Positions 15,623 to 56,497 of a stretch of 64,000 nucleotides of DNA are shown here, piece by piece. The DNA comes from an uncultured Bacilli bacterium (lineage in GTDB: Bacteria; Bacillota_I; Bacilli_A; RF39; UBA660). The position numbers were made by a program, and so were the translations under genes. The notes below the pieces were generated by a model. The model saw nothing but the letters and a program-made list of their open reading frames with translations. It had not been told where the DNA came from and made no database searches. How positions within the stretch are numbered: position 1 is the stretch's first letter; the number at the start of each line of letters is the position of its first letter. The DNA is taken from the NCBI GenBank assembly GCA_934167665.1, contig CAKPLN010000001.1, positions 341,331 through 405,330 on the forward strand, written 5' to 3'.

Positions 15623-16164
15623 TAAGTCTAACTCCTTTAAATTAATAAAATTATACCATATATCAATCGTTTTCTAAAGAACTATCTATCTGAAAAAAAT
15701 ATAAAAAGAATATGATAAAATGAATAATATAAGGAGATGTTAATATAAGTAAGGAAAAATCTTTTTATATTGATAAGCCTTTATTACAAAGAATAGTTTT
15801 ATTTTTAACTGGTTTTAGTAATTTTCTAATAGGTTATGCCCCATATTTTATATTTAAAGATGATAAATCAAAAGACTATCAAATAGAGTTTGTTTAAAAA
15901 GGTGCAGCTTTTGGTTTAGCATTTACCATAATTGGACTATTCCTTGGTTTAATTTCATCAATTTTATAAAATTAAATTAATCAATCACAAAAAATCTCGT
16001 TTAACTTATAAAAAGAAATGAGGTTTTTTTAATATTTTAAATAAACAAAATGATATAATAGAAACTGAAAGACAAATAGTAATTTGTAATTTAGTTCTCT
16101 CTTAATAGATTTGTATTAATAATTAAGAGGATAAAAAAATAATATTTTGTGTTAAATAGTAAAG

Positions 16165-16195
16165 TTGTTTACATTTTTAAAATGTAAAATATATT
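16165..16195 (+). promoter_or_regulatory. Promoter with an overlapping 20 bp palindrome (TTTACATTTT-AAAATGTAAA), a likely autoregulatory operator of the XRE gene
   Basis: TTGTTTACATTTTTAAAATGTAAAATATAT lies upstream of 16250. The palindrome arms are a perfect 10/10 match. Confidence 0.45.
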
Positions 16196-16249
16196 TGATA
16201 GTAAAATAATAATAAAAAATGTATAGTTTTTTGTGAGAGGAGAAAGATT

Positions 16250-16657
16250 ATGGATTTAGGCAAAAAAATTATTGAAATGAGAAAAAAAGCAAAACTTTCA
16301 CAAGAACAACTTGCAGAAAAACTAGATGTTACCAGACAAACTATATCTAATTGGGAAAATGGCAAATTTTATCCTGATATTGATGCATTAGTTAAAATTA
16401 GTAAATGTTTTAATATTTCGTTAGATGACTTACTAAGTTACGATAATAAAGTTTTGCAATATTTAAAAGATAGCACAGATGTTGTAAAAAGTAATAAGAA
16501 ATTGCTTTATGCGATTTTATTAAATATTCTAATTATTATTCTATTTATAATAATAGGAATAACTGCAAATGAAAGTATTTCAATTATAGTAATAGTATTT
16601 ACTATTTCTATTATTAGTTTTTCTTATTTATTTTATCAAATCATAAAAAAAATATAG
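16250..16657 (+). CDS. Membrane-tethered XRE-family regulator (HTH plus 2 C-terminal TM)
   Basis: HTH_XRE (LSQEQLAEKLDVTRQTISNWENG) followed by a hydrophobic C-terminus. Confidence 0.7.
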   Translation: MDLGKKIIEMRKKAKLSQEQLAEKLDVTRQTISNWENGKFYPDIDALVKISKCFNISLDDLLSYDNKVLQYLKDSTDVVKSNKKLLYAILLNILIIILFIIIGITANESISIIVIVFTISIISFSYLFYQIIKKI

Positions 16658-16666
16658 GAGGAAATT

Positions 16667-16990
16667 ATGAATTATATTTTATTAGCAATATTTATAGCAA
16701 TATATCTAATAGGTTTAGTTGCTACAATTTATCAAGTTTATAAAATAACTGTTATAGATTCAAAAGCAAGAGGAATTAGCCATCCAAAATTAATGGGATT
16801 ACTAGCAACCAGTGGTAAAAGTTCAGAAGGAATTATTCTTTATCTATTGCATAGAAGAAAATATCCAATAAAAAATATTTCGAAAGAAGAACAAAATGAA
16901 ATAGAAAGAAGAAAGAAAATTGTATTAGTAGGAATTATATTTATGATTATTGGTGCAATTGGATTTGTATTCTTTATAGTAAAAATATAA
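16667..16990 (+). CDS. Small 2-TM membrane protein, PLDc_N-like (putative)
   Basis: Strong ribosome-binding site AGGAGG 8 nt upstream of the start, 9 nt after the XRE stop. The loop HPKLMGLLATSGKSSEGIILYLLHRRKY resembles the PLDc_N motif. Confidence 0.35.
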   Translation: MNYILLAIFIAIYLIGLVATIYQVYKITVIDSKARGISHPKLMGLLATSGKSSEGIILYLLHRRKYPIKNISKEEQNEIERRKKIVLVGIIFMIIGAIGFVFFIVKI

Positions 16991-17025
16991 TCATATATAA
17001 TATTAAAAAATTGCAATTAATCGTC

Positions 17026-17055
17026 GAGATCAACTTTAATAGTTGGTCTTTTTTA
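17026..17055 (+). terminator. Rho-independent terminator of the XRE operon
   Basis: AGATCAAC-N7-GTTGGTCT followed by TTTTTT. Confidence 0.5.
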
Positions 17056-17109
17056 CTTTTTATAAATAGGATGATTTTATATATAAATATTAATATATGT
17101 AAAAAAGCA

Positions 17110-17217
17110 GAATAAGAAACTTGTGCAACTACACTAAACTTTTCCTTATTTCATAAGGGTTTAGTGTTACACAAGACTGATTTCGTACCGTTGACGTAGA
17201 GGTCTACGACTTTTTTT
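17110..17217 (+). ncRNA. Candidate small RNA: long imperfect hairpin (17120-17175) followed by an intrinsic terminator (17195-17217)
   Basis: CTTGTGCAACTACACTAAAC ... GTTTAGTGTTACACAAG inverted repeat, then ACGTAGAGGTCTACG plus T7. No ORF in the segment. An AT-rich stretch that could hold a -10 lies upstream. Confidence 0.25.
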
Positions 17218-17325
17218 CGGCAATAACAATTCATATGAATCAATCTATATAAATATTATCATAAAAAATTAAAGACTTTTATAAAAATTTATTGTATAAT
17301 TATAATTGAAAGGAGTAAGCTTAAT

Positions 17326-17559
17326 ATGGAAAAAGATAATAATAATGTAGTAAGATTTTTGTTAACATTCTTTTTAGGATGGATTGGTAGTATAATTATT
17401 AATCATACTAATTTAAAACCTGCAGGATATAGAAGTAGAACTGCAGCATATTTTTTCCTTACAATTGTTACTTTTGGAATTTATGGTCTTGTTGCTAGTA
17501 TTTGCAACTTAACATTTGATCCAAACAAATCTAGTAACATTGGATATGTTAAGGAATAA
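17326..17559 (+). CDS. TM2-domain-like small membrane protein
   Basis: Strong ribosome-binding site AGGAG. VRFLLTFFLGWIGSIIINHTNL...YFFLTIVTFGIYGLVASI resembles the TM2 domain. Confidence 0.4.
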   Translation: MEKDNNNVVRFLLTFFLGWIGSIIINHTNLKPAGYRSRTAAYFFLTIVTFGIYGLVASICNLTFDPNKSSNIGYVKE

Positions 17560-17573
17560 TCTTATATTTAACT

Positions 17574-17598
17574 ATGAGGATATTATTCCTCTTTTTTT
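17574..17598. terminator. Bidirectional terminator
   Basis: GAGGA-TATTATT-CCTC followed by T7. Confidence 0.5.
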
Positions 17599-17602
17599 AT
17601 AA

Positions 17603-18249
17603 TTAAAAATCATCGTCTTTTGATTTAGAATCTCTATCTATTTCTGCAGATCTATTTTTAGTTTCTAATATACCTCTTATTTGTTCTTCATCTAAAATAT
17701 TCTTACCATATAATTCATAAGCAACTGGATAATATTTATCACGTTTTTCTTTATTACCCCACATTTTATCTACAAAGAAGTGATATAGATTGTTAATTTT
17801 ATTTTTATATTTTATAGATATTGTTAATCGTTACCAATAACTTTTATATTTATCTTCATAAATGTTATTATGTAAAGAAAAATCTGAATACATTCTACCT
17901 GAAATACCGCTACCACTTAAATAAACTTCAAAGGAAATGTTTTACCAATAAATTGTTTACCAAAATCATAATAATATGGTGTAGGTATTCCACTACCAGA
18001 TGTTGATTTTCCAAACACTCTTAAAATATCTTCATCTGTTAATTCTTTTTCTAAAATTATTTTTGTATTTCCAAATTTTCGTTTTGAATACAACATCTCA
18101 AAAATGTCTAAAATACTAGATTTTCCAATATTATTTTTTCCTATAATTACATTTATAGGTTTTATATTATTTATACATCCAGATTTAAAACATTTATAAT
18201 CTTCAAATTTAATACATTTTATATCCATACTAAACGCTCCTTCCAACAA
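17603..18249 (-). pseudogene. Remnant of an AAA/OLD-like (AAA_21-type) ATPase
   Basis: Intact N-terminal 110 aa with Walker A (IGKNNIGKSSILD) and the typical first strand (MDIKCIKFEDYKCF). It then continues in two other frames to 17603 with stops. There is no Walker B or nuclease part. Confidence 0.5.
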
Positions 18250-18356
18250 ATTTTTTAAGTATTATAACTTTATTTTGCCGTTTGTTTATTCATAATAATT
18301 CATTATTTTTATGTTATAATTAATATAGTTTTAGTTCTTAAGGAAAGAGGTACTAT

Positions 18357-18815
18357 ATGCATTTTTATGAATTAATTAAAAAATTAACTGAAGATAAAAA
18401 AACAATTATCTATGTTGATATGGACGGTGTAATTGCTTCTTATGATTTTGGAAAGCCACTTGATTTTAAAAATAAAAGACCTTTAACTACAAATATTAAA
18501 ACATTAAGTAAATTAAGCAATCTAAAAAATGTTGAACTACATATATTATCAGTTTGTAGATTTAATAATGAGGTAAATGAAAAAAATGAATGGTTAAATA
18601 AATATGCCCCATTTTTTGAAAAAGATAAAAGGACTATTATTCCAAAAGAAAGTTATCCGCATTATTCATCAAAAGAATTAAAATTAAATTATTTAAAATC
18701 ATTAAAAAATGATGAACAAATTATTTTTATTGATGATGACAATGAAGTTTTGAGAACTGTTCGTAATGGTTTGAAAAACATAATGTTATATCAAGATTCT
18801 GAATTAATAGATTAG
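18357..18815 (+). CDS. HAD-superfamily 5'(3')-deoxyribonucleotidase-like protein
   Basis: HAD motif I (IIYVDMDGVIAS) and a C-terminal FIDDD motif, an NT5C-like pattern. Confidence 0.55.
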   Translation: MHFYELIKKLTEDKKTIIYVDMDGVIASYDFGKPLDFKNKRPLTTNIKTLSKLSNLKNVELHILSVCRFNNEVNEKNEWLNKYAPFFEKDKRTIIPKESYPHYSSKELKLNYLKSLKNDEQIIFIDDDNEVLRTVRNGLKNIMLYQDSELID

Positions 18816-18830
18816 AAGAGAGAAATATAT

Positions 18831-19289
18831 ATGTTAAGTTATGAAGGAATATTTTTTGAAGCAGATATGGTTGATTTGATACATTCTTTAGAATCAGAAA
18901 AATTAGCCAGAGTTAATGATGAAATACATTGTACTTTTAAATATCATCCAACAACTGATGAAATTTTCAATGATATAGTTGGAAGAACATTTGAAGTATA
19001 TTTAATAGGTTATGGTAATGATGGGCAAAACAGTGGATTTGAAATATTATTTCCAGATGAATTAAAAGATTATTATATAAATTATGATGAACAAAATCCT
19101 ACAGTCTTAAAGACACCTCATATTACTGCATCACTAGCTGAAGGAGCAAAAGCATCAAATACAAAAAATCTTAATTTTAAACCCTTAGAAAAACCTGTTA
19201 AGTTAGTAGGAAGATTTGGTTATTGGATTAAAGGTGAGAATGAAGAATACTTATCTTATGAACCATATTCTAAAGGTAAAACAAGATAA
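18831..19289 (+). CDS. 2H phosphoesterase superfamily-like protein (LigT/YjcG-like), putative
   Basis: Two H-x-T-x motifs (HCTF near residue 33, HITA near residue 97) in a protein of about 150 aa. It is co-transcribed with the HAD gene (16 nt gap). Confidence 0.35.
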   Translation: MLSYEGIFFEADMVDLIHSLESEKLARVNDEIHCTFKYHPTTDEIFNDIVGRTFEVYLIGYGNDGQNSGFEILFPDELKDYYINYDEQNPTVLKTPHITASLAEGAKASNTKNLNFKPLEKPVKLVGRFGYWIKGENEEYLSYEPYSKGKTR

Positions 19290-19365
19290 TATTTTAATAC
19301 ACACGCTAATTGATTATGTCAATTTGCAAGTGCGTTTCTAAATTATCAAAATTTAGTATAAACAA

Positions 19366-19400
19366 AGAATACGACTAAGCAAAGTAGTCGTATTCTTTTT
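19366..19400. terminator. Strong rho-independent terminator (12 bp stem) after the HAD-2H operon
   Basis: AGAATACGACTA-agcaaag-TAGTCGTATTCT followed by TTTTT. Confidence 0.7.
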
Positions 19401-19606
19401 CTAGTATTTCTTCTTTAGACATATCTTTAAGAAATCTAAATCACTTATAAATATCATTTCATCTGCTACACAACTCTTAGAATCATCTACCATTTGATCA
19501 AATTCTCTATATCTATCTTGTCTAATAGTTTCCATTTTTTCGTCGTGTTCTTTTTTATATTCTTTAGTAATTTCATAAAACTTTTTCTATATTCAATATT
19601 TAATAA

Positions 19607-20152
19607 TTATATTTTATCTCCAATTTTATTAACTTCAATATTATCAATATAAGTACCAATTATTCTTTTCATTTCTTCTCTAGAAGCATTAATTAAATTT
19701 AAAATATTAGTTAAAAATATATCGGGATTAACAAAAGTATCAATTGTTTCTGTATCTTCTAAAATTAATAAATCATTAGTAGTAAAGTTAAGGTTTTCAC
19801 GTTGTTTAATTTCTTTAATCTTGTTATTAATGTTATCAATTTTATATCTAATACTTTTTAATTCGTTATCGAACTCATTCATTTTAACAACACCATTTAA
19901 GTAAGCACATTTAAATCTTTCTTCTTGGTTTTCATAGTCTTGGTTCATATAATCAATTACATGTGAAAAACAAGGTGTTGCTATATCATGAAAAAGCCCT
20001 GCTAATGTTGCTTTTTTATCTTTTGTTAATTTATAAACTATCAAACAAACTGTTAACGAATGATCATATCTACTTATATACTCTCTAAAATCATATATAT
20101 CTTTTGAAGCATCGTCCATTCCACAAAAATAACCAATATTTTTTAACCTCAA
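19607..20152 (-). CDS. HD-domain phosphohydrolase (YfbR-like 5'-deoxynucleotidase pattern)
   Basis: H...HD motif (DHSLTV ... GLFHDIATP). TTG start. A coding-like reading-frame continuation downstream (19420-19600) suggests a possible frameshift. Confidence 0.45.
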   Translation of the reverse strand: MRLKNIGYFCGMDDASKDIYDFREYISRYDHSLTVCLIVYKLTKDKKATLAGLFHDIATPCFSHVIDYMNQDYENQEERFKCAYLNGVVKMNEFDNELKSIRYKIDNINNKIKEIKQRENLNFTTNDLLILEDTETIDTFVNPDIFLTNILNLINASREEMKRIIGTYIDNIEVNKIGDKI

Positions 20153-21209: not shown

Positions 21210-21283
21210 TGGTGCCGAAAGACAGAATTGAACTGTCCGCTGATCCTTACCAAGGATCTGTTTTACCACTAAACTATATCGGC
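21210..21283 (-). tRNA. tRNA-Thr (anticodon GGU)
   Basis: Folded by hand: GCCGATA acceptor stem, GTTT/AAAC D-stem, GATCC-TTGGTAA-GGATC anticodon arm, GACAG-TTCAATT-CTGTC T-arm, ACCA end. 74 nt. Confidence 0.85.
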
Positions 21284-21351: not shown

Positions 21352-21426
21352 TGGTGTTCAAGGCGGGAATCGAACCCACACCATTTCCTTCGGGGGGAAA
21401 TATTCTATCCATTAAAATACTTGAAC
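21352..21426 (-). tRNA. tRNA-Arg (anticodon CCG), with an unusual C at position 33
   Basis: Perfect GTTCAAG/CTTGAAC acceptor stem, TTTCC-CCCCGAA-GGAAA anticodon arm, GTGGG-TTCGATT-CCCGC T-arm, ACCA end. 75 nt. The D-stem is weak. Confidence 0.65.
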
Positions 21427-33192: not shown

Positions 33193-34065
33193 ATGAAAAG
33201 AAATTATAAAACCATAATAATTATAAGTCTATTAGTATTATTAATAATATATATCCTAAATTCTAATATGATAGCAACAAGTATTATAAATTATACTAAT
33301 CTCTTTATTACTAAACTTTTCCCTTCTAGTTTTATTATTTTTATTTTCTCATCATTATTAATTGATTATGGTATCATTCAATTACTTAGTAGTACTAAAA
33401 TAAATGGAAATATTATCTATGTCAGTCTAATGAGCTTAATTAGTGGTTTCCCAAGTGGTGTAAAATATACAAAGGAACTTTTAGATAAAAATCTAATTTC
33501 TCCTAAAACAGCCAACTATTTAATAACCTATACCCACTTTCCTAATCCCATCTTTCTATTAGGCCCAATATCATCAATATTAACTAAACCCCTAGCCTTA
33601 AAACTACTTATGATAATTATTATAAGTAATACCATTATAGCCATCATATTTAAACCTAAAAAAGAAACATTCACTCTTCCTAAAACAAGTAACACTAGTT
33701 TTGCCACATCTTTAAAAAAAGCAACTTACGCATCATTAAAAACATTAACTATAGTTTATAGTTCATCCCTTTTTTTCTATTTAATAAGTATTATTATCAC
33801 TAAATACATTAGCCTAGATCCCTTAAATTATGTAATTTTAAATGGTCTATTTGATCTAACCCAAGGAATATTTTCATCTCCAATAATATCAAGTATCACA
33901 ACAAGAGCTATTGTTATTTTATTTTTCCTATCATTTGGAAGTATTTCTATACATATCCAAACAAAAAGTATCATTGCTGATACTTCTATAAACTATAATA
34001 AATATTTACTAGGAAGAGTCTTAGAAACAATAATAGCCTTATCTTTATTTATAATATTAAACTAA
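33193..34065 (+). CDS. Polytopic membrane protein (about 8 TM), hypothetical, possibly YlbJ-like
   Basis: Highly hydrophobic. No peptidase A24 (prepilin peptidase) motifs were seen. Confidence 0.35.
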   Translation: MKRNYKTIIIISLLVLLIIYILNSNMIATSIINYTNLFITKLFPSSFIIFIFSSLLIDYGIIQLLSSTKINGNIIYVSLMSLISGFPSGVKYTKELLDKNLISPKTANYLITYTHFPNPIFLLGPISSILTKPLALKLLMIIIISNTIIAIIFKPKKETFTLPKTSNTSFATSLKKATYASLKTLTIVYSSSLFFYLISIIITKYISLDPLNYVILNGLFDLTQGIFSSPIISSITTRAIVILFFLSFGSISIHIQTKSIIADTSINYNKYLLGRVLETIIALSLFIILN

Positions 34066-34709
34066 AAATAATTGATTGGACAAACTATATCTATTCCATA
34101 TCTAGTTCCTAAATCAGGATGGTAAAAACCAACATAGAAACTAAAGATACTATTATCGGTATCAATAATAATATTGTTAATTCTAAAATCATAGATTTTG
34201 CATCCTTCTCCCCCACACTTTGCAGAGTTACCATTATATCCAAAACCTAAATCAGGTAATTTATAAACTGTATAGTCATCACTACCCTCATCAGTACCAT
34301 AACTAATCTCAAAAACATCATCATGATCAGAACTACAAACGCCATCTTCAGAATCAATACATTCCCCAAAATCTCTAGCATAAGATGCCCCAACTGTTAA
34401 TTTTTTCTTAGCACCATCACGAAATGTCAAATATACAACATATTTTTTTTCGTAATCGCTATTAGAATTAGATATATTTTCATCGATCTTAGCATCAACT
34501 AACCCTTTTTTTATAAGATCATCTTGTATTTCCTTTGTTAAAAGGTTTTTATATGTAACAATCTTATCTTTATCAGATTCAATATTCTGTTTATTTTTAT
34601 ACTTATTAACAGTCCCATACATAGATACCATTAATATTGTCATTAATATAAAACTAACTAAAATTTCAACTGCTGTCATTCCTTTATTATTTAATCTTAC
34701 CCTTTTCAT
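34062..34709 (-). CDS. Pseudopilin / minor pilin with a class III (prepilin) signal
   Basis: NNKG-MTAVE: Gly at -1 and Glu at +5, followed by a hydrophobic helix. Confidence 0.6.
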   Translation of the reverse strand: MKRVRLNNKGMTAVEILVSFILMTILMVSMYGTVNKYKNKQNIESDKDKIVTYKNLLTKEIQDDLIKKGLVDAKIDENISNSNSDYEKKYVVYLTFRDGAKKKLTVGASYARDFGECIDSEDGVCSSDHDDVFEISYGTDEGSDDYTVYKLPDLGFGYNGNSAKCGGEGCKIYDFRINNIIIDTDNSIFSFYVGFYHPDLGTRYGIDIVCPINYF

Positions 34710-35335
34710 TACTTCTTCACCTCTATTGTTGAATAAGCATAGTAATCATTATCATCCTTAGTTCTATGATACTCAATTATTAATCTATATTTAGCCCCAT
34801 TCAAAGAAGCCGTATTAATATATTCAGGCAAATAAGCAACATAATCTGATAAATTGCCACTAAAAATACCTTGACCAAGTTCTGTTGCCGCTCTTTCCTT
34901 AAAGTCTGTTAATCTATATGCAGTTAAATATATACAAGGCTTATCATCAGCTGTATTAGTAATATTACCATTACTATCTCTAGCGGCAACTTGTAATTTA
35001 CTAACAAGATTATTACATAAATTTTGTGTAGTAGCATCATAAGGAATATCAGTAGTACAATCAAATCTATGATAACTATTATTAGCTATATCATACGAAA
35101 TGCTACCGGCAGTAGAAACATCTCCAAATGAAACATCATCACTTTGAATAATCTTCTTAAACCAATAAGTACCATATTTACCGTCAATATCATCGTAAAC
35201 TTCTCGCTTTTCATATTCCGCAACTATTGGAAATAAGTTGGTATATATAATGGAAAATATAGTCATTACAAATACCGTAACTATAAGGGTCTCTGCGAGC
35301 ATAAAACCCTTGTCGTTTAATTTGAATTTTTTCAT
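34709..35335 (-). CDS. Pseudopilin / minor pilin with a class III signal
   Basis: NDKG-FMLAE-TLIV. Its stop overlaps the start of the downstream pseudopilin gene. Confidence 0.65.
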   Translation of the reverse strand: MKKFKLNDKGFMLAETLIVTVFVMTIFSIIYTNLFPIVAEYEKREVYDDIDGKYGTYWFKKIIQSDDVSFGDVSTAGSISYDIANNSYHRFDCTTDIPYDATTQNLCNNLVSKLQVAARDSNGNITNTADDKPCIYLTAYRLTDFKERAATELGQGIFSGNLSDYVAYLPEYINTASLNGAKYRLIIEYHRTKDDNDYYAYSTIEVKK

Positions 35336-35422
35336 AACTCTCTCCTTGCTATTATAATAAAACTATTATATAATAAAATATAGTAAAATACCATATCAAA
35401 GTAAACAAAAGGGGTTGAAAAA

Positions 35423-38400
35423 ATGGTAGAAATGGAAGTAAGAAAAGTAACAAAAGGTGTTGAATCTAACATGGTAGCTTTCGACTTTGAGCGTACACCA
35501 ATTACTCAAATCGCCGATTATATCATTATAACTGCCTCAAGAAACAATGCTTCAGATATTCATTTTGATCCACGTGATGAGAGCATGATGGTAAGATTCC
35601 GTATTGATGGTGACTTGCAAGATTATACAAATATTCCAAAACTTTACGAAAGAACCCTAACTACTCGTCTAAAACTTTTAGCTGGAATGAATATTACAGA
35701 ATCTCGTCTACCTCAAGATGGTGCCATAAAAGGTGAATTTGGTGGCCAATATCTTGATATGCGTGTTTCCTGTCTTCCACTTAACACAGGTGAAAAAATA
35801 GTTATTCGTATCTTAGATTATACAAGAAGTTTAAAAGGTGTTGAACATTTAGGATTCAATCAAACTAATTTAAAGAAAATCAAAAGAATGATGGGTGTCC
35901 CAAATGGTATCATTTTAGTTACTGGTGCTACAGGTTCTGGTAAATCTACGACAGTATATTCAATACTACAGGAATTAAATCGCCCTGAAACAAACATTAT
36001 TACTGTTGAAGACCCAATCGAAATGGACATCGAAGGAATGAATCAAGTTCAAGTAAATGCTGAAATCGGTATGACATTTGCCGCTGCTTTAAGATCTATT
36101 TTGCGTCAAGACCCAAATATTATACTAATAGGAGAAATTCGTGACTCAGAAACTGCTCAAATAGCAGTTCGTGCTTCAATAACAGGTCACTTAGTTCTAT
36201 CAACTATCCACACCAACAATGCCCTTTCAACAATTGAACGTTTACTAGATATGGATGTAGAGCGATACTTACTATCAACATCTCTTACTGGAATAATTGC
36301 TCAAAGACTTGCCAAAAAACTATGCACACATTGCCGCATAGAAAGAGAAACAACAAAATATGAAAAAAAAGTCTTTAAAAAATTCATGAATCGTGACATT
36401 GAAAAAATCTACGATGCCAACCCAAAAGGCTGTGAAAACTGCCGTAACGGTTATAAAGGACGTATCGCTGTTCACGAAGTCCTAGAAATTGATGATGAAA
36501 TTAGAAATGCTTTGGCCATTAATAAAATGACTAAAGAAGAACTATCTAAAATGGTATACGGATCAAAAACTATAACAATGCTTCAAGATGCCTTAGGAAA
36601 AGCTATATCAGGCCTAACAAGTTTTGAAGAAGTATACAGAGTAATAGAAATTGAAACAGAACCAGATGATGATACTGCTTATCTAACTAGAGCCATAGAA
36701 GATGTTCCAGAAGTAATTAAACCAACTTCACCAGTTCAGACAGCACCAAAAGCTACTGAAACTTCACCTTTACAAGTAACTCCAACAACAGTATCTACAA
36801 CTGTACCCGTAACAACTCCTGCTACAGTAGCTCCTTCAAAAGTCAGTACACCAGTTAATACTAATAAAGCTGTAAATACTCAAAATACTGAAATAAAAAC
36901 TCCAATTTTATTAACTAAAGAGCAAGAGCAGCAACAAGCAGAAAATGCCAAGACTAAATTAAAAGAACTAGTCGAAGCAGAAAATGCCAAAAAACTAGCT
37001 GAAGTAATATCAAAACCACAAGAAGTACAAAGAGCAAAGCTAGTTGTACAAGATCCAAAACTAAATCCAGTACCTGTACAAACAAAAACAAATACCGAAA
37101 ACGAAACACAAAATAAAGAAAAAGCTGCTGAACAGCCTATTCCTATTCCTATTCCTATTCCACCACAAAGATTATATCAATTACCTAGATCATCAAATGA
37201 ACAGTTACCTAAACAAGTAAAAACAACTTCACCTAAGATTGAAAAAATGGAGAAAGCTATTCCAGAGTTAAATATAAAAATTAAAACTAATGATAAGAAA
37301 GCTACAATAAAATCATTAAGTGGTTCACCAATATTTGAAAATAGTAACCTCTTTGAAGAAAAAGACAAAGTCAAAGCCATTGACCTTAATAAAATAAGTC
37401 AATCAATAGACTTAAAGAAAGAAGAAAAAGTTATTAATCCTCTAAAACCAACCGTTAAACCAGATGAAAGCAATGATAGAGGAAATAACATCCCTGTAAT
37501 TATTGAAACATTCTCAATAGATGACAGTCTAAGATCAGCTCCAAAGTTAAATGCCATCAAGCTTGATCAAATAAAAAATAATGAAACAGTTCCTACTACT
37601 AATAAAGAAAAAGTTGCAGTAAAAAAAGAAACAACAAATAACAGTACTGAAAAGTTCGAAATAGAAACACCAACAACAAATACAAGTAAGACTGATAATA
37701 AAGATAGTGAAAGGAAAGAACAAGTTGGAACAACAAGTATTAAACCAGTAGCCTCTAAAACCACTACTAAAAAAATAACTAAAGCTAATGTAGAAACTGT
37801 TAAACCTACTACTCCTGTAGTTGAACCAAAAGTAGTGCCTACTACCAAACCAATATTACAACAACCAGTAGTAAATACAGTTAAATCAGTAGTGCCTATT
37901 GTTAATACTCTAACTACAAAAGCTAATATTGAAACGGTTAAACCAACAGTTCCTATTACGAACCCTACAACTGCAAAAGTTAATATCGAAGCTGTTAAAC
38001 CTATAGCTCCTGTTACTACTCCTATAGCTACAAAAACTAATATTGAAACTGATAAACCTACTACTACTGAGGTTGTACCAAAAGTAGCGCCTACTACAAA
38101 ACCAGTATTGCGACAACCAGTAATAAATACAGTTAAATCAGTAGTGCCTATTGTTAATACTTTAACTACAAAAACCAATATTGAAGCTGTTAAACCTACT
38201 ATTCCTGTGATTGTACCAAAAGTAGCACCTACTACAAAACCAGTATTGCAACAACCAGTAATAAATACAGTTAAATCAGTAGTGCCTATTGTTAATACTT
38301 TAACTACAAAAGTTAATATCGAAGCTGTTAAACCTATAGCTCCTGTTACTACTCCTATAGCTACAAAAGCTAATATTGAAACTGTTAAACCTATAGCTCC

Positions 38401-40054
38401 TGTTACTACTCCTATAGCTACAAAAACCAATATTGAAACTGATAAACCTACTATTCCTGTGGTTGTACCAAAAGTAGCACCTACTGCAAAACCAGTATTA
38501 CAACAGCCAGTAGTAAATACAGTTAAATCAACAGTTCCTATTACTACACCTGCAGTTATTAAAACTAATGTTGATGTTAAACCTATAACTTCTGTTACTA
38601 CCCCTATAGCTGCAAAAGTTAATATCGAAACGGTTAAATCAACTACTCCTGTAGTTGAACAAAAAGTAGTACCTACTACAAATATTCCTATACCTAGTAT
38701 TGTATTGGAAACTAAACCTACTACTCCAACTACCTCAGTAGCAACTAGCACTAATAAAGGAAAAGAAGTAACACCTATAGACAAAGTAAAAACACCTATT
38801 CCTAATATCATAACAGAAGAAAAAATAAGTAATGATAAAAAAACAACTGTAATAAATTCACCAGTTAATTTAACATCGCAAGTTTTGCCTGAAGCAATCA
38901 CTAAAAAACCAACTGAAATCAAAACTGATGGTAAGAAGTTAGAATTTCCAACAACTAAAGTTCCAGAAAAGACTTTTCTAATAACTGATGCAAAAGTTAA
39001 TGTAATAAAGCCTACAGCTACACCTATGACATCTTCTCTCATAACAGAAGCAAAAACTAATAATACATTAACTCCAGCAACAAAAGAAATAAAACCACTT
39101 GTTACTGAAGCCAAAGTAGCACCTAACATTAAAACAGAGAAACAAATAAGTGACACAGATGCTTCTAAAATTAAAGCAATTTTAACCTCAACAGAGAAAA
39201 AACCATTTATAACTGAATTTAAGGCAACACCAACGACTGCATCACCATTAAAAACAATTGAAAAAAATTCTCTTATTGCCGAGGTTAAAACTACTACACC
39301 TCTAATATCTCAATCAATAAGTAAAACTCCTTTAGCTAGCCAAGCAAAAACATCGCTTGAGAAAAAACCTTTTATTACAGAAGCCAAGATTACTCCTACA
39401 AAACCAGTAAGTAGTACAATGCAACCTACAAAGGAAATACAAAAACCACTTGTTACTGAAATAAAACCAAATACAGTACCTCTTACAGAAATAAAAGTTG
39501 CTCCAAAGAGATCCTTTATTACTGAAGAAAAAGTTGTTCCTTTAAAATCTACTCCAACTATTCCAACTGTTGAGAAAAAGGAGTTAATTAAAGAAGTTAA
39601 AATGACTACTCCTATTAAACAAACAACTAATACAACGCCACTACCAAAAACGACACTTCCAGAAAAAAAGCCTCTCATAACAGAGACAAAGCCTAATGTA
39701 TTAGTAACACCAATCACAAAACCTCTTATCACTGAAGAGAAGATTAATCAGGTACCTAAAACAACTGCTCCTACACTTCCACCTATTGAGAAAAAACCAC
39801 TTGTTCCGAAAATAAAAAATAAGGAAGAAAAAATAGAAGTCAAAAAAGATAACAGTTCAATAAATATTACTGATAACAAAAACAAAGTAAATACTGCTTC
39901 TACTACACCAATTAAAACTATAACCCCAGCAGTTCAGGTACCAAAACAACAAGAAAATAAAATAGCAATCAAGAAAGAGCCAACTATTATGAAAAAAGCT
40001 GAAAAGTCTAATTCAGATACAGATAGTGACTTACCAATTTTAGGAGAAGATTAA
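35423..40054 (+). CDS. GspE/PilB/ComGA-family secretion ATPase (about 410 aa) fused to a Pro/Thr/Val/Lys-rich tandem-repeat tail of about 1130 aa
   Basis: Walker A GATGSGKST, Asp box TVEDPIE, RQDPNIILIGEIRD, His box TIHTNNA, and tetracysteine CTHC...CENC. The uninterrupted frame then runs 3.4 kb in AT-rich DNA and ends at a TAA. Confidence 0.85.
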   Translation: MVEMEVRKVTKGVESNMVAFDFERTPITQIADYIIITASRNNASDIHFDPRDESMMVRFRIDGDLQDYTNIPKLYERTLTTRLKLLAGMNITESRLPQDGAIKGEFGGQYLDMRVSCLPLNTGEKIVIRILDYTRSLKGVEHLGFNQTNLKKIKRMMGVPNGIILVTGATGSGKSTTVYSILQELNRPETNIITVEDPIEMDIEGMNQVQVNAEIGMTFAAALRSILRQDPNIILIGEIRDSETAQIAVRASITGHLVLSTIHTNNALSTIERLLDMDVERYLLSTSLTGIIAQRLAKKLCTHCRIERETTKYEKKVFKKFMNRDIEKIYDANPKGCENCRNGYKGRIAVHEVLEIDDEIRNALAINKMTKEELSKMVYGSKTITMLQDALGKAISGLTSFEEVYRVIEIETEPDDDTAYLTRAIEDVPEVIKPTSPVQTAPKATETSPLQVTPTTVSTTVPVTTPATVAPSKVSTPVNTNKAVNTQNTEIKTPILLTKEQEQQQAENAKTKLKELVEAENAKKLAEVISKPQEVQRAKLVVQDPKLNPVPVQTKTNTENETQNKEKAAEQPIPIPIPIPPQRLYQLPRSSNEQLPKQVKTTSPKIEKMEKAIPELNIKIKTNDKKATIKSLSGSPIFENSNLFEEKDKVKAIDLNKISQSIDLKKEEKVINPLKPTVKPDESNDRGNNIPVIIETFSIDDSLRSAPKLNAIKLDQIKNNETVPTTNKEKVAVKKETTNNSTEKFEIETPTTNTSKTDNKDSERKEQVGTTSIKPVASKTTTKKITKANVETVKPTTPVVEPKVVPTTKPILQQPVVNTVKSVVPIVNTLTTKANIETVKPTVPITNPTTAKVNIEAVKPIAPVTTPIATKTNIETDKPTTTEVVPKVAPTTKPVLRQPVINTVKSVVPIVNTLTTKTNIEAVKPTIPVIVPKVAPTTKPVLQQPVINTVKSVVPIVNTLTTKVNIEAVKPIAPVTTPIATKANIETVKPIAPVTTPIATKTNIETDKPTIPVVVPKVAPTAKPVLQQPVVNTVKSTVPITTPAVIKTNVDVKPITSVTTPIAAKVNIETVKSTTPVVEQKVVPTTNIPIPSIVLETKPTTPTTSVATSTNKGKEVTPIDKVKTPIPNIITEEKISNDKKTTVINSPVNLTSQVLPEAITKKPTEIKTDGKKLEFPTTKVPEKTFLITDAKVNVIKPTATPMTSSLITEAKTNNTLTPATKEIKPLVTEAKVAPNIKTEKQISDTDASKIKAILTSTEKKPFITEFKATPTTASPLKTIEKNSLIAEVKTTTPLISQSISKTPLASQAKTSLEKKPFITEAKITPTKPVSSTMQPTKEIQKPLVTEIKPNTVPLTEIKVAPKRSFITEEKVVPLKSTPTIPTVEKKELIKEVKMTTPIKQTTNTTPLPKTTLPEKKPLITETKPNVLVTPITKPLITEEKINQVPKTTAPTLPPIEKKPLVPKIKNKEEKIEVKKDNSSINITDNKNKVNTASTTPIKTITPAVQVPKQQENKIAIKKEPTIMKKAEKSNSDTDSDLPILGED
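37136..37159 (+). repeat. (CCTATT)x4 hexanucleotide microsatellite encoding PIPIPIPI
   Basis: Seen directly. The repeats are in frame. Confidence 0.9.
37780..38660 (+). repeat. Interleaved tandem repeats of 138 nt (46 aa) and 57 nt (19 aa) inside the ATPase-fusion gene
   Basis: The block CAACCAGTA(G/A)TAAATACAGTTAAATCAGTAGTGCCTATTGTTAATACT recurs at about 37863, 38115 and 38259. Each unit begins with K-x-N-I-E-x-V-K-P. Confidence 0.85.
39180..39800 (+). repeat. Second, looser repeat family (EKKP[FL]ITE[AEF]K units) in the C-terminal tail
   Basis: GAGAAAAAACC(A/T)TTTAT(A/T)AC(T/A)GAA recurs at about 39190, 39360, 39663 and 39788. Confidence 0.6.
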
Positions 40055-40087
40055 AAAAAAGAGATTGATTAAAATTCAATCTCTTTT
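40053..40087. terminator. Bidirectional rho-independent terminator
   Basis: A8-GAGATTGA-TTAAAAT-TCAATCTC-TTTT between convergent genes. Confidence 0.7.
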
Positions 40088-40116
40088 CATTTGTCAAAAA
40101 AAAGAACTATAAAATT

Positions 40117-41478: not shown

Positions 41479-42572
41479 TTTACTTCCCTTTCCAACACAC
41501 CTACTATAATTCCATTACTTATATACCATTTATCTTCTGGAATAAAAAGATGCTCATTCTTTAAAGCTAACAAACCATTTTTTAATAATTCTTTATAATC
41601 ATAAACTTCTATTAAATTAATACCAAACCTATTTTTAAAAAGTTCTAAGTCAATACCATCAGATTTTCGTAAATTTAAAATTACCTGATATTCTATCTCA
41701 TCATGCCAACTCAAAACCTCTACATCATTACCATATTCATTTATAAAATATCTATTAATAGATCTAGTATTATTCTTACGTACATTTTCTAAATAAGAAC
41801 TAGCTCCAAGCCCAAATCCATAATAATGTTCATTATCCCAATAACAAGTATTATGTCTCGACTCATATCCTTCCTTCGCAAAATTACTAATTTCATAATG
41901 CTTATATCCCTTACTTTTAAGAACTTCACAAATCAGTTTATACATATCATTATCTAAATCTTCTGAGATATTTTTAATACCCTTAATTTTTAATTTAGTG
42001 TTATCCTCAATAATTAATGAATATGTAGAAATATGAGGAACATCAAGACTCAAAATATAGTTAATATCATTCATCAAAATATCTAAATCTTCACCAGGAA
42101 TGGCATAAATTAAATCAACATTTACATTAGTTAACCCTATCTTCTTAGAATATTCAATTATATCGGTAACGTTTTTAATAGAAATGTTTCGCTCTAAAAT
42201 AGATAAATTCCCCTCATCAATTGATTCTATACCAAATGACAATCTGTTAACACCATAGTTTTTATATAAATCGAGTTTTTCATATGTTGTACTTTCAAAA
42301 TTACCTTCAATAGTAAACTCACAATCTAAGCTCTTATTAAATATTTTTGTTATTTCAAAGAGTCTAATCAGTTGTTCTATATTCAAGCAACTAGGTGTTC
42401 CACCACCAATATAAATAGTATTCACTAACTCGCCCTTATATAAAGTTAAAATTTCTTTTTTTAAAGCCTCTAAATACCTATCAACAAAATTCTCATTATA
42501 AAACAATTTACAAAAATCGCAATAAGAACAGATTTTATCACAAAATGGAATATGTATATATACACTTATCAT
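41475..42572 (-). CDS. hemW: Radical SAM heme chaperone HemW (oxygen-independent coproporphyrinogen III oxidase-like)
   Basis: CDKICSYCDFC is the CxxxCxxC motif. The gene lies downstream of lepA, as in other Bacillota. Confidence 0.8.
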   Translation of the reverse strand: MISVYIHIPFCDKICSYCDFCKLFYNENFVDRYLEALKKEILTLYKGELVNTIYIGGGTPSCLNIEQLIRLFEITKIFNKSLDCEFTIEGNFESTTYEKLDLYKNYGVNRLSFGIESIDEGNLSILERNISIKNVTDIIEYSKKIGLTNVNVDLIYAIPGEDLDILMNDINYILSLDVPHISTYSLIIEDNTKLKIKGIKNISEDLDNDMYKLICEVLKSKGYKHYEISNFAKEGYESRHNTCYWDNEHYYGFGLGASSYLENVRKNNTRSINRYFINEYGNDVEVLSWHDEIEYQVILNLRKSDGIDLELFKNRFGINLIEVYDYKELLKNGLLALKNEHLFIPEDKWYISNGIIVGVLEREVK

Positions 42573-43144
42573 TTGTGTTTTCTAGCACCTTCATCAACAA
42601 CAAGTCTTTCGGTATCATCATCTTTTCTATCATTTCCATCATCAGCAAGTATACTAGCAGCATCTACTATAGACTCTTTAGTCACATCAGTTGCTCCTCT
42701 TCTAATACCTTCAACTGCTGCTTTTTTATTTTGACCATACTGCTTGCGAACATCACCATGTAACTCAGAACCTAAATTTTTCTCATTTAAAGCTCCATAG
42801 ATAGTTGAAGCTGAAACTTCAATACCTGTTTCATCTTTTACTTGTTTAAGTGTTAATCCTTCTTCTACTAACTTTCCTGCTAGTTCACAAGCTTTATCCG
42901 TTGATATTTTTTTATGTCCCAAATTGCCACACGTTTTTTTAGCAGCCAACCAACGAGCCTTCTTAGTTTCAAGAACCTGCTTTTGCGTCTCTGGATCCAA
43001 CCAAACACCAGCTCTACCATTTAAATATCTATTAATTGTTGTTTTAGATACAGCATATTTACCAGCTAAAAAATCCATTGTAGCTTTATCATTATTAATA
43101 TATTCAAATGCAATCGCATATAACGTTATTATGTCAAAACTCAT
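42569..43144 (-). CDS. HTH-domain protein inserted between lepA and hemW (possibly derived from a mobile element or phage)
   Basis: N-terminal HTH (AVSKTTINRYLNG), a basic/acidic tail, and visibly higher GC than the surrounding sequence. Confidence 0.35.
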   Translation of the reverse strand: MSFDIITLYAIAFEYINNDKATMDFLAGKYAVSKTTINRYLNGRAGVWLDPETQKQVLETKKARWLAAKKTCGNLGHKKISTDKACELAGKLVEEGLTLKQVKDETGIEVSASTIYGALNEKNLGSELHGDVRKQYGQNKKAAVEGIRRGATDVTKESIVDAASILADDGNDRKDDDTERLVVDEGARKHK

Positions 43145-51817: not shown

Positions 51818-53857
51818 TTAAATTCCATACATTTCATAATACTTATTAGTAACCTCTTTTGTAATTCTAAGTGTCACTAAACTAGCATAATCAGTTGTAG
51901 AATTAGGATGAGACGAATTAGGTGAAGTAACAACTATAGATACCTTAGGATTATTATAAGGAAAATAGCCAACAAAAGAACTAGTAATAGTTTCTGTATC
52001 AATAATACCATTATTATCAGTATCAATAAAACTCTGGGAAGTACCAGTTTTACCGGCTGCATCTAATTTATTATCAATATAACCTCGTCCATATCCTCCA
52101 TTAGCGTGCATAACCGCATAAAAGCCCTCTTTAACTCTATTCATATAATTACTATCTATATTAATTGTATTTAAAACTTGTTTTGGAACCTCAAAATAAG
52201 TATCACTAATCGTCTCATCATTCGTAGCTTGATGAACCTCTTTTAATAATCTAGGCGCTATTCTACTACCACCATTTGCAAAAGTTGAAATATATTGTGA
52301 TAATTGAATTGGCGTATAAGTTTCATATTGACCCATAACAAAATCTAACAAATTACCAGCACTTCGATCTTTAGAAGTATAACCACTACTTTCAACTGGT
52401 AAATCAATACCTGTCTTAACACCCAAGCCAAAGGCATGATACATATTACGATAAGTATCAAATGCTGCCTGATTAAAGTTTAATTTCATATCCCTAAAAT
52501 ACTCTTGTCCATTAACCCTAATAGCGGCCTTAAACTGATAAACATTACTACTTTTAGCAAGTGCCGTAATATCATTAATATATCCTAAAGTAACTGAAGA
52601 ACATTTAGCAGGAGCCCCAGCAACTTTAATACATTCATCTAAAATCTCTTCTCCAATATGAACAGCACCAGTATTATAAGCCACTAACATAGATGCACCC
52701 TTAACAACAGAACCAGGAGTTATTGGAGATATAAGCATACTAGTAACATTATCAATGATATTACCATTAACTATTTTTTTAGAGGCCATAGCTAAAATCT
52801 CCCCAGTATTCGGATCCTGAATAATTACACTAGAGTGATCATAATACTCCGTATTAGCCTCACTCTTAGCCCTAATCATTTGTTCTTCAATAATTCTCTC
52901 AACTTCTCTTTGTAAATTTATATCTATCGATAAAACAATATCATTACCTCTACTTCCCTCATCAATAAGCCTAAGTTCATGAGAATTAACAACTTCATAT
53001 ACAGCCTTTTCTCCTCGTAAGTAATTTTCATATTGCTTTTCCAAATAACTAAGACCAACACGTTCATTTAAAGAATACCCTAAAGAAAGATAATAATCCT
53101 TATCCTCTGCTGGAATTCCCTGAAGAGATACTGTTCCTAAAATAGATCTTAAAGTATCACCATAAGGATAAATTCTCTCCCAATCAACTTGTGTATTAAA
53201 GCCACCTAAATCACTATTATTTTCAGAAATATAAGCAAATTCTTTATCTGAGGCATTACTTTTTATAACCTTCTCCTCATAATTATATCCCCGACTCATT
53301 AAATAGTATAAATAAGCTGCTCTAAGGTCATTATCATCTAATGAAGAAAGTTCATTATCAGTAATCCTTTCAAGCTTCATCTCTAATAAATCACTATTTG
53401 TTATCTTTCGCTCCTTAATTAACTTTCTTTCTTGTGAAGTTACTTTCTTATTACACTCATCAGAATATTTAGTTAAATAAAATTCTCTTTTAGCCCTATC
53501 AGTCAATTTATCAAAATCAAGTTCCAAGTGTGGAGCAACCTTATATGCTAGTTGTAACATTTCATCATTAGTAACACCTTTTTCTTTTTTATAAACTATA
53601 GTATTTAGCGCTTTATTATCCACTATAATATTATAATTTCGATCATAAATTCTTCCTCTAGGAGAACTACCTAAAGTAACCTTATTAGATGTAAGAGAAG
53701 CTAATGTATCAACATTTTCATCATAATTAACTACCATAACAGAAAATAATTTAAAAAATAAAACAAAGAAAAAGATAACAAGTACCACCAATAAGACGTT
53801 AAATCTAACGCCAATCACTTTATCATAATTAATACTTTTCGTCATACTTTTTCTCAT
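51818..53857 (-). CDS. Class B penicillin-binding protein (transpeptidase)
   Basis: N-terminal TM, a dimerisation domain, and the SxxK (GSVVK), SSN and KTGT motifs. Confidence 0.85.
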   Translation of the reverse strand: MRKSMTKSINYDKVIGVRFNVLLVVLVIFFFVLFFKLFSVMVVNYDENVDTLASLTSNKVTLGSSPRGRIYDRNYNIIVDNKALNTIVYKKEKGVTNDEMLQLAYKVAPHLELDFDKLTDRAKREFYLTKYSDECNKKVTSQERKLIKERKITNSDLLEMKLERITDNELSSLDDNDLRAAYLYYLMSRGYNYEEKVIKSNASDKEFAYISENNSDLGGFNTQVDWERIYPYGDTLRSILGTVSLQGIPAEDKDYYLSLGYSLNERVGLSYLEKQYENYLRGEKAVYEVVNSHELRLIDEGSRGNDIVLSIDINLQREVERIIEEQMIRAKSEANTEYYDHSSVIIQDPNTGEILAMASKKIVNGNIIDNVTSMLISPITPGSVVKGASMLVAYNTGAVHIGEEILDECIKVAGAPAKCSSVTLGYINDITALAKSSNVYQFKAAIRVNGQEYFRDMKLNFNQAAFDTYRNMYHAFGLGVKTGIDLPVESSGYTSKDRSAGNLLDFVMGQYETYTPIQLSQYISTFANGGSRIAPRLLKEVHQATNDETISDTYFEVPKQVLNTINIDSNYMNRVKEGFYAVMHANGGYGRGYIDNKLDAAGKTGTSQSFIDTDNNGIIDTETITSSFVGYFPYNNPKVSIVVTSPNSSHPNSTTDYASLVTLRITKEVTNKYYEMYGI

Positions 53858-55162: not shown

Positions 55163-55729
55163 TTAAGCTTCAACGCAAACTGGAACAGTTGGATTAGCTA
55201 CAAGAATATCATTTACAGCCTTCTTTTCAGGATCAGTTAAAGTCATTTTAACATTTCCTCTAACTAAAGCATCAGATTGAATTCCAGAAGCAACTGTATC
55301 AGTAATTCCATGAGTACCATCATTTAAAGCAACATAGAACTTAGTAATACGACGTTCTCCTGAAGTAGAAATGTTAACTCTTACATAACCTTTTACGTTA
55401 CGATTACCCCAAGATGACTTACCACCTTGATCAACCAATACTGGATAATTAGCAGAACTAGTATCAATTTGAACATAGTAATCACCATCATCAACTGCAG
55501 AAGATACTACTGAATCATTTACACCAACCTTACAAGATAATCCATCAGCTGTCCATAATGTTTTAACAGCATTAGCATAAGACTTAGCAATATCTACAAA
55601 AGTATCCTTTCTTGAATTTTCAATTGTTCTAGATACTGAAGGAATCGCAACCATCATTAAGATACCCATAATTACGATTACTGCAAGTAACTCAACCAAT
55701 GTAAAACCTTTACTATTGATCTTTTTCAT
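55163..55729 (-). CDS. Type IV pilin / ComGC-like major pilin
   Basis: KG-FTLVE-LLAVIVIMGIL class III signal with Glu at +5. Confidence 0.75.
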   Translation of the reverse strand: MKKINSKGFTLVELLAVIVIMGILMMVAIPSVSRTIENSRKDTFVDIAKSYANAVKTLWTADGLSCKVGVNDSVVSSAVDDGDYYVQIDTSSANYPVLVDQGGKSSWGNRNVKGYVRVNISTSGERRITKFYVALNDGTHGITDTVASGIQSDALVRGNVKMTLTDPEKKAVNDILVANPTVPVCVEA

Positions 55730-55885: not shown

Positions 55886-56497
55886 CTATTCTATAGCATA
55901 AACATGTGTAATTCCTGCTGAGCAATCAACAACACTATGATCTATTCTTGAACTAAGCGTAACTCCTTTATTACTATTAGCTTCTAAAGTAGCCTGATCA
56001 TTACCATATGCATAGTTATAATCAGATAAATTAAATAAATTACTATTTTCAACATTTTCAACTTTATCAGTTGCTCCATCAGCATATAAAGTTGTTACCT
56101 TAACTAAAGGAATACCTCTAGGCTCAGTACTAGCTGAGATTCTCTCAATTAATTGAACATAGTATTCATATTCATTATTTACTCTTTTTATAACAACATA
56201 AGACTGATTCTTTAAATACTCACCACCATTAGGTGGATCTTCAAATTCTGAGTTATCTAAATATGCCAAGTTCATTACAACACATTGATTTTCTAAAGGC
56301 TTTACAATACCAGTACTACTACCTCTAAGTTTATATTCAGCCGTTGTTGCAAGCTTCTTAGCATCTTCAACATAAGTAGTAGCCCTATTTTTATAAAGAA
56401 TACCCGTAACATTAGGAATCGCAATTGACATAATAATTCCTAAAATAACCATTACTGCCAACAACTCTACTAAAGTAAAACCCTTTTCATTTCTCAC
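55886..56497 (-). CDS. Type IV pilin-like protein
   Basis: KG-FTLVE-LLAVMVILGII. Confidence 0.7.
   Translation of the reverse strand: MRNEKGFTLVELLAVMVILGIIMSIAIPNVTGILYKNRATTYVEDAKKLATTAEYKLRGSSTGIVKPLENQCVVMNLAYLDNSEFEDPPNGGEYLKNQSYVVIKRVNNEYEYYVQLIERISASTEPRGIPLVKVTTLYADGATDKVENVENSNLFNLSDYNYAYGNDQATLEANSNKGVTLSSRIDHSVVDCSAGITHVYAIE

Follow-up and report, generated by a model that had tools for sequence, protein, structure and literature searches.

A repeat-built C-terminal tail of strain-variable length on a type IV pilus-type assembly ATPase from an uncultured gut Bacilli species

The stretch of DNA analysed here, referred to throughout as the window, comprises 64,000 nt of contig CAKPLN010000001.1 (assembly GCA_934167665.1) from an uncultured Bacilli bacterium. 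It includes a single open reading frame (ORF) of 1543 aa (positions 35423..40054, + strand), which encodes a pilus/secretion-type ATPase followed by a long C-terminal tail. The region at 37136-39800, previously noted for its in-frame tandem repeats, encodes the distal two-thirds of a predicted-disordered C-terminal extension of ~1130 residues on an assembly ATPase of the type IV pilus/competence-pilus type. In-frame repeats are present in this extension and its length is polymorphic between strains of the species, and this is held with high confidence. The account as a whole, in which a mosaic, length-variable tail would change size by turnover of its repeat units and serve as a tether, is considered fairly probable.

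The ATPase head and its C-terminal extension

The head of the protein (aa 1-412; 35423..36658, + strand) has a GspE/PilB/ComGA-type core, as judged by a PF00437 match, by motifs and by alignment to solved chains. The PF00437 match extends over aa 24-406 and covers profile positions 5-370 of 370, with a score of 397.9 bits against a gathering cut-off of 24.9 (E value 4e-119). In alignments with solved GspE, PilB and PilF (E values of 1e-95 to 1e-103), residues 24-408 span the entire N2D+CTD core and extend to the last few residues of those chains. The Walker A (GATGSGKST), Walker B (ILIGEIRD, with the catalytic Glu) and His box (LVLSTIHTN) motifs are present, as is a tetracysteine zinc motif of the form CxxC...CxxC (C301/C304...C337/C340), and all four are invariant among relatives in a 14-sequence alignment. 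A ratio of nonsynonymous to synonymous polymorphism (pN/pS) of 0.03 marks the head as the most constrained of the segments compared. On these comparisons, the head is a complete, ordinary GspE/PilB-type ATPase of the T2SSE superfamily. The scores for the curated equivalog families were all below their cut-offs, with 270.8 against 300 for ComGA (NF041000), 473 against 630 for GspE (TIGR02533) and 454 against 676 for PilB (TIGR02538). Hence, the head is assigned to superfamily level only.

Neither a signal peptide nor a lipobox, transmembrane (TM) segment or wall-sorting signal was found in the 1543-aa protein from its hydropathy and architecture, and the N-terminus is that of the ATPase head. 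Given the lack of a signal peptide and of a TM segment, the description of the tail as sitting on a cytoplasmic motor, made in the initial annotation, is reasonable.

After approximately aa 412, the protein continues for ~1130 residues, giving a tail 2.7 times the length of the motor domain. No family was matched when the tail alone was scanned against Pfam and NCBIfam. Its reading frame includes no internal stop in 1110 codons, versus ~80 in shuffles of the same composition (minimum 51), and third codon positions are A or T in 88% of cases for the tail and in 79% for the head. The frame is open in all 34 clusters of conspecific sequences described below and is also kept in genus-level relatives. 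As judged from these sequence features, the tail is expected to be translated in one piece with an intact motor. A gene fusion produced by misassembly or frameshift was considered and rejected, as the same continuous ORF was found in more than 34 clusters, with synteny kept down to a closed long-read genome.

The tail is rich in T (17%), K (14%), P (12%), V (10%) and I (9%), and poor in F, W and Y (1.1% together) and in G (0.5%). It has a net charge of +50 and a pI of 9.6. No tail segment is hydrophobic enough for a membrane span (maximum 19-residue hydropathy 0.95), and an exported or TM-anchored tail was rejected on hydropathy and architecture. AlphaFold2, run on the tail with a 17-sequence alignment, predicts disorder, with a mean predicted local distance difference test score (pLDDT) of 36 and values under 50 for 1077 of 1144 residues. 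A single helix is modelled with confidence, at aa 499-530 (nt 36917-37012; pLDDT 84-92). Because the alignment is shallow, the model is taken as supporting evidence for disorder and not as proof.

The tail begins with an acidic linker (aa 413-432, net charge -6), which is followed by a variable P/T-rich stretch (aa 433-494). The two, defined by charge and composition, together occupy 36659..36904 (+ strand). An acidic stretch immediately after the head was found in all 42 orthologues with tails of at least 30 aa.

Repeat arrays and length variation between strains

The first repeat in the tail is a (CCTATT)4.3 microsatellite at 37136..37161 (+ strand), which encodes PIPIPIPI (aa 572-579) as originally noted and is perfect, with a 100% match in Tandem Repeats Finder (TRF). 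It occupies a non-conserved gap in the tail module described in the next section, where relatives have unrelated residues. Further downstream, a KxNIExVKP tandem array (37781..38692, + strand), delimited by TRF, by repeat families D1-D3 and by a parse of the units, is made up of 138-nt and 57-nt units arranged in a higher-order repeat of 390 nt. TRF recorded periods of 138 nt (2.3 copies, 91% match, score 538), 57 nt (scores 197 and 252) and 390 nt (1.9 copies, 88%, score 1206). At the protein level the array consists of 10 units, each starting K-x-N-I/V-E/D, in the order 46, 19, 19, 46, 46, 19, 19, 46, 18 and a partial 26 aa. The 138-nt and 57-nt units had been called near-exact copies. They are present, and the term is somewhat generous for them, given a DNA identity of 80-94% for the long units and 75-100% for the short ones, two of which are identical. 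Between units, DNA identity is 89% versus a protein identity of 78%, with differences that are mostly amino-acid-changing. The longest exact repeat within the gene is 62 nt.

The looser EKKP[FL]ITE family of the initial annotation is also real. It corresponds to a region of 12 EKKPxITExK motif copies at irregular spacing (aa 1129-1445; 38792..39742, + strand; repeat families D4-D9 and a motif list). Within this region, a protein alignment of five alleles revealed a 144-nt (48-aa) unit that is present as a single copy in the window (39395..39538, + strand). The tail arrays have TRF scores of 197-1206, and no other tandem repeat in the window scores above 69. The unit lengths, of 6, 57, 138 and 390 nt, are all divisible by three, in line with the initial annotation, and the 144-nt unit adds another.

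Two long ORFs on the opposite strand, one of 529 aa (37567..39156, - strand) and one of 140 aa (39310..39732, - strand), had been interpreted as spurious mirror images of the repeats and not genes. The data are consistent with this, as neither ORF matched a family in the Pfam and NCBIfam scans and the mirror frame is poor in stops; one antisense frame is nearly stop-free (9 stops) because of the composition of the repeats. In a related species (locus L027), a 517-aa antisense ORF lies over a different set of repeats.

A protein search of 5.8 billion clusters identified 34 clusters with a head 97.9-99.8% identical to that of the window, and these include 21 distinct protein lengths between 1327 and 1685 aa. 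The 1543-aa protein itself was matched exactly on two metagenome contigs. When the KxNIE arrays of the conspecific clusters were parsed using anchors, they were found to differ by whole units of 18/19 and 46 aa, and the PI run is likewise of variable length (1 to 4).

For a comparison at the DNA level, the window was aligned with four further conspecific alleles (L082, L083, L084 and L087) over loci of ~12 kb. Over the 3.9-kb flanks, identity between the window and the four alleles is 99.1-99.8%, and 0-2 bases are gapped. The in-frame indels in the gene, of 2, 14, 18, 48, 64, 98 and 310 aa, are all located within the tail repeats. The 2-aa indel is exactly one CCTATT unit, with four units in the window and three in six other contigs that have identical flanks. 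The 48-aa indel is the 144-nt unit, which is single in the window and in L083 and is a tandem duplicate in L082, L084 and L087. Besides these differences in unit number, the alleles carry point substitutions within units. Thus, the comparison of repeat copy number between strains, which had been proposed as a check, revealed many lengths and indels confined to the tail repeats. The prediction that in-frame repeats would allow tail length to change without loss of frame was borne out by strains that differ by whole units and by a frame that is open in all 34 clusters.

In-frame tandem units beyond chance expectation, with a copy number that differs within the species (in short-read assemblies), are the features of a variable number tandem repeat (VNTR) locus. 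The features of a phase-variable contingency locus, namely units not divisible by three or a promoter location, were not found. The hexamer count would be changed by slipped-strand mispairing, and the units of 57-144 nt, which share up to 62 nt of exact identity, would be gained or lost via unequal recombination or replication slippage; we infer recombination and slippage from the alleles and not from direct observation. As every unit is a multiple of three, each such event would resize the tail and never truncate it. Slippage at the longest homopolymers in the ORF, which are A7-A8 runs and include one at 36363-36370 in the head and, among the A7 runs of the tail, four at 37621, 37769, 38837 and 39663, would truncate the protein, and no truncated allele was found among the 34 conspecific clusters.

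Conserved elements, proposed role and alternative explanations

The initial annotation considered the tail only as a set of in-frame repeats. The repeats are there, and so are a conserved module that is not repetitive and an EKKPxITE motif that is conserved between species, so that a repeats-only view of the tail does not hold. The module, of ~230 aa (aa 495-725; 36905..37597, + strand), was defined by identity to genus-level relatives, alignment and a profile. It shares 40-47% identity with those relatives (E values down to 1e-44), versus only ~30-40% for the rest of their tails. Its motifs are an LTxEQ helix, YQLPKS, EKMEKAIPELNI, SPxxExxxFxEKDKVxxIDxNKISKSxDLKK, PLxPTVK and PVIIETF, and among these EKMEKAIPELNI, FxEKDKVxxIDxNKISKSxDL and PVIIETF are invariant in the alignment. 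The pN/pS ratio is 0.20 in alignment columns 426-790, the segment that holds the module. Constraint is therefore graded, with this segment between the head (0.03) and the array and distal tail (~0.8).

All local matches to the module profile were tailed ATPases. When the profile was searched against 1.84 billion representatives, only four matches were obtained, all of them tailed ATPases or a fragment, and the tail is therefore lineage-restricted. No stand-alone homologue of the module that might provide a clue to its function was found in that search. When the distal tail (aa 1120-1543) was used in a word-index search, low-complexity words swamped the candidates; the only match was a 342-aa fragment, even the known alleles were missed, and this search is therefore uninformative.

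The EKKPFITEMK motif occurs in genus-level relatives in 2-5 almost letter-perfect copies, and one copy of this type is invariant in the 17-sequence alignment. Three proteins from a related species (P0036, P0037 and P0038), with heads at least 98% identical and lengths of 1244-1384 aa, carry 4, 4 and 5 copies, respectively. Hence, the number of motifs offered, as well as the length of the spacers, varies between strains in these sequences. The KxNIE array is absent from genus-level relatives. The last conserved element is the C-terminal peptide DTDSDLPILGED (40016..40051, + strand), identified by comparison of C-termini and of alignment columns. In relatives at species and genus level, its pattern D.D..L..LGED does not vary (columns D1133, D1135, L1138, L1141, G1142, E1143 and D1144). 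An acidic tip as a universal feature of the order was considered and rejected, as a net charge of -2 or lower in the last 10 residues was found in 38% of tails of at least 30 aa, versus 20% of internal 10-mers; the feature is kept for the genus-level LGED clade only. Overall, the tail is a mosaic of conserved short elements and fast-evolving spacers rich in T, P, K, V and I, several of which are tandem repeats.

Orthologues were sought in one genome per GTDB species, and at least 568 genomes have a relative. The best 80 are metagenome-assembled genomes of uncultured gut 'Bacilli/Tenericutes/Mycoplasmatota', which probably belong to the GTDB order RF39, as presumably does the host of the window, an uncultured human-gut Bacilli species. 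The orthologues extend past the head by 0 to >1100 aa, with the longest tails in the closest clade only. The gene has a conserved position, divergent from two prepilin-like genes, beside ylbJ-like and Lon-PDZ genes and convergent with tmk. This position is kept as far as the closed long-read genome, in which the tail of the orthologue is 71 aa. Given the conserved position and the range of tail lengths, the tail arose by growth in situ, with the motor that bears it being orthologous throughout. Unrelated in-frame repeats are present in other species, with an 87-nt unit in 2.7-2.9 copies in L027 and a 114-nt unit in 2.6 copies in L004, and tail lengths differ in every cluster of heads with at least 98% identity that has two or more members. 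Repeat-driven resizing is therefore recurrent in the protein family.

The product would be a cytoplasmic hexamer bearing six long, basic and flexible arms. These arms may act as tethers or multivalent scaffolds that offer the module, the EKKPFITE motifs and the LGED tip to a putative partner. The repeats would chiefly set spacer length, reach and motif number, with little constraint on their own sequence. The proposal that the tail functions as a tether or scaffold presenting docking motifs, suggested by the conserved elements, is made tentatively. A more specific form of it is a scaffold particular to the gut lineage, with six disordered, basic arms of ~1100 residues per hexamer, each carrying the module, up to a dozen EKKPFITE-type motifs and the LGED tip. 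Such arms would recruit or gather partners where the pilus machine meets the cytoplasm, at its base; these might be nucleic acid, components of the pilus or of DNA uptake, or further arms within a condensate. This activity would be tuned between strains as the repeats alter the length of the arms and the number of their motifs. In this detailed form the proposal is rather doubtful.

Several points weigh against the account given here. The prediction of disorder depends on the shallow 17-sequence alignment. The pN/pS ratio of ~0.8 in the array and distal tail, a value confounded in the array by paralogous misalignment, would fit near-neutral evolution. The tail is not needed for basic ATPase function, as it is missing or very short in many orthologues. 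Neither a platform protein (T2SSF) nor a prepilin peptidase was found among the ORFs tested, which were only part of the 59 in the window. Finally, every allele was taken from a metagenome assembled from short reads, and tandem repeats are where such assemblies fail. Within the 1685-aa allele (L082), a stretch of at least 200 nt is repeated exactly, and coverage is 3x for the contig that carries the 1327-aa allele (L083), an allele without the KxNIE array. Hence, some of the copy numbers may be wrong.

The alternative that survives best, one we consider unlikely, is neutral low-complexity growth. A short C-terminal extension would have expanded in a lineage with reduced genomes, the expansion being tolerated and of no functional relevance, and its length would drift without a phenotype. 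The pN/pS ratio in the array and distal tail points in this direction, as do the mostly amino-acid-changing differences between units, the unrelated sequences of orthologue tails that range from 0 to >1100 aa, and the rarity of the module among the representatives searched. However, in a genome rich in A+T, all alleles and the genus-level relatives have kept the frame open over more than 1100 codons, and neutral growth should often have given nonsense or frameshift truncations, for example at the A7 runs, of which the 34 clusters have none. The low pN/pS of the module segment, and the invariance of EKKPFITEMK and the LGED tip across species whose tails are otherwise only ~30-40% identical, also argue against it.

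A second alternative is that the true structure is fixed and that the differences in copy number reflect repeat collapse or mis-joining. The short-read origin of all the data, the long exact repeat in L082, and the low coverage and missing array of L083 would fit this explanation. Against it, the exact 1621-aa allele is present on 9 contigs, which represent three sample sets and three naming schemes (NODE_, scaffold_ and k141_), and the 1523-aa and 1537-aa alleles likewise recur. The k141 contig name implies an assembler k-mer longer than the longest exact repeat in the window (62 nt), and the differences of 6 nt, (CCTATT)3 versus (CCTATT)4, and of 144 nt are too short to mislead an assembler. 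Point substitutions within units also separate the alleles. Overall, an artefact of assembly is judged highly improbable as the source of the variation.

Size-variable repeat lipoproteins are known in mycoplasmas, and Gram-positive surface proteins have wall-spanning regions. An exported surface antigen, varying in size under host or phage selection, would share with these a composition like that of wall-spanning or linker regions, and the within-species length variation and high pN/pS are typical of such antigens, but this explanation deserves next to no credence for a protein with none of the export, lipidation, membrane or sorting signals listed above, with an acidic LGED peptide in place of LPXTG plus a TM segment at its C-terminus, with a tail fused C-terminally to a soluble ATPase whose relatives work at the inner face of the membrane, and with no on/off switching because the units keep the frame.

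Genomic setting, known systems and implications

The two divergent prepilin-like genes (34062..35335, - strand), identified by an N_methyl motif and a motif scan, encode proteins whose N-termini are of the KGF/MLAE and KGM/TAVE types and whose lengths are 208 and 215 aa. They gave weak N-terminal matches to ComGD and ComGE and matched no other family beyond the N-terminal motif. Both genes are unusually large, and their pairing with the ATPase gene is kept in conspecific and distant loci across the lineage. The 87-nt divergent intergenic region before them includes promoter-like hexamers (35329..35374, + strand; 10/12, consensus match only), and a terminator-like 13-bp hairpin (40056..40088; consensus match only) lies between the convergent ATPase and thymidylate kinase genes. 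Two more type IV pilin-like genes, encoding 188 and 203 aa with strong KGFTLVELL N-terminal methylation motifs, are located at 55163-55729 and 55886-56497 (both - strand), 15-20 kb from the ATPase gene and adjoining GHL10 and AP-endonuclease-type genes. The pilus genes of the organism appear to be dispersed and not arranged in one operon.

A YlbJ-like 'sporulation integral membrane protein' is encoded at 33193-34065 (+ strand; E value 9e-25, below the cut-off), and a SpoIIID-like helix-turn-helix (HTH) protein that scored just under the cut-off at 42569-43144 (- strand). The window also encodes a penicillin-binding protein transpeptidase (51818-53857) and a glutamate racemase, and the organism therefore appears to make peptidoglycan; several records label the lineage Tenericutes/Mycoplasmatota. 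An Rfam scan of the window detected only two tRNA genes (21213-21283 and 21355-21426, - strand), with no match in the tail region. The segment at 16000-20000 has the lowest GC content in the window (0.23), a local reversal of GC skew and + strand genes amid a minus-strand region. Its genes include one for a regulator of the HTH_3/Cro-C1 type (16250-16657) and a tandem pair for two 152-aa paralogues (18357-18815 and 18831-19289), of which one weakly matches NT5C, and the segment may be a small island.

The window protein has the N2D+CTD core and motifs of the GspE, PilB, PilF and ComGA ATPases, and its gene adjoins prepilin-like genes. Assembly ATPases of type IV filaments are usually viewed as compact hexameric motors that end with the catalytic domain. 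Whereas characterised members end within a few residues of the end of the head, the window protein continues for ~1130 more; it also lacks an N-terminal N1/T2SSE_N domain, and its gene stands alone, with no platform-protein gene following it. Dozens of Patescibacteria ATPases (P0076-P0120), which share 42-46% identity with the head, are GspE/PilB-type proteins of ~1005 aa, about twice the canonical length, and their extension is assumed to be N-terminal.

In-frame VNTR length polymorphism is a textbook mechanism, known in bacterial surface proteins and contingency loci. The tail resembles other coding VNTR loci in having in-frame units with a strain-dependent copy number, with slippage or unequal recombination presumed to operate. 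It is unlike them in that the carrier is a cytoplasmic motor ATPase and that there is no frame-shifting on/off switch. By analogy, the composition recalls titin PEVK, and the arrangement recalls the C-terminal linker and C-terminal peptide of FtsZ and the acidic tip of SSB. In such an arrangement, a globular oligomeric NTPase would be followed by a predicted-disordered linker of variable length and sequence and then by a short conserved acidic/hydrophobic peptide. However, the tail is 10-20 times longer, includes an internal module and a multi-copy motif, and has a terminal peptide whose conservation does not extend beyond the genus. The Tad pilus ATPase CpaF has a disordered region that is N-terminal and short, unlike the C-terminal, repeat-built and length-polymorphic tail of >1100 aa described here. 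CpaF is a member of the PilT/VirB11-like superfamily, as is the window protein, and is discussed together with an intrinsically disordered region (PMC12019362). In the searchable literature on RF39 pili and competence, on disorder in ComGA and on C-terminal extensions or disordered regions of PilB, no such tail was described. We could not find, there or in protein-family libraries, a description of this combination, in which the C-terminus of a type IV filament motor bears a predicted-disordered, repeat-built and strain-variable tail of more than 1000 residues with conserved linear motifs.

The locus provides a ready strain-typing marker for the species, and the long antisense ORFs over such repeats are a reminder to annotators that these are artefacts. 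The tailed motor is widespread in an uncultured lineage of the human and animal gut, where independent in-frame expansions have occurred and a few short motifs have been kept. If the tail is neutral, it would represent a striking tolerance of low-complexity sequence by an essential-type motor in a reduced genome. If the motifs are functional, the family would be a natural system in which to study the control of a bacterial nanomachine by disordered tethers and by the valency of their motifs, and, should the scaffold interpretation be true, the tail would add to a type IV filament motor a level of regulation or organisation that has not been described before.

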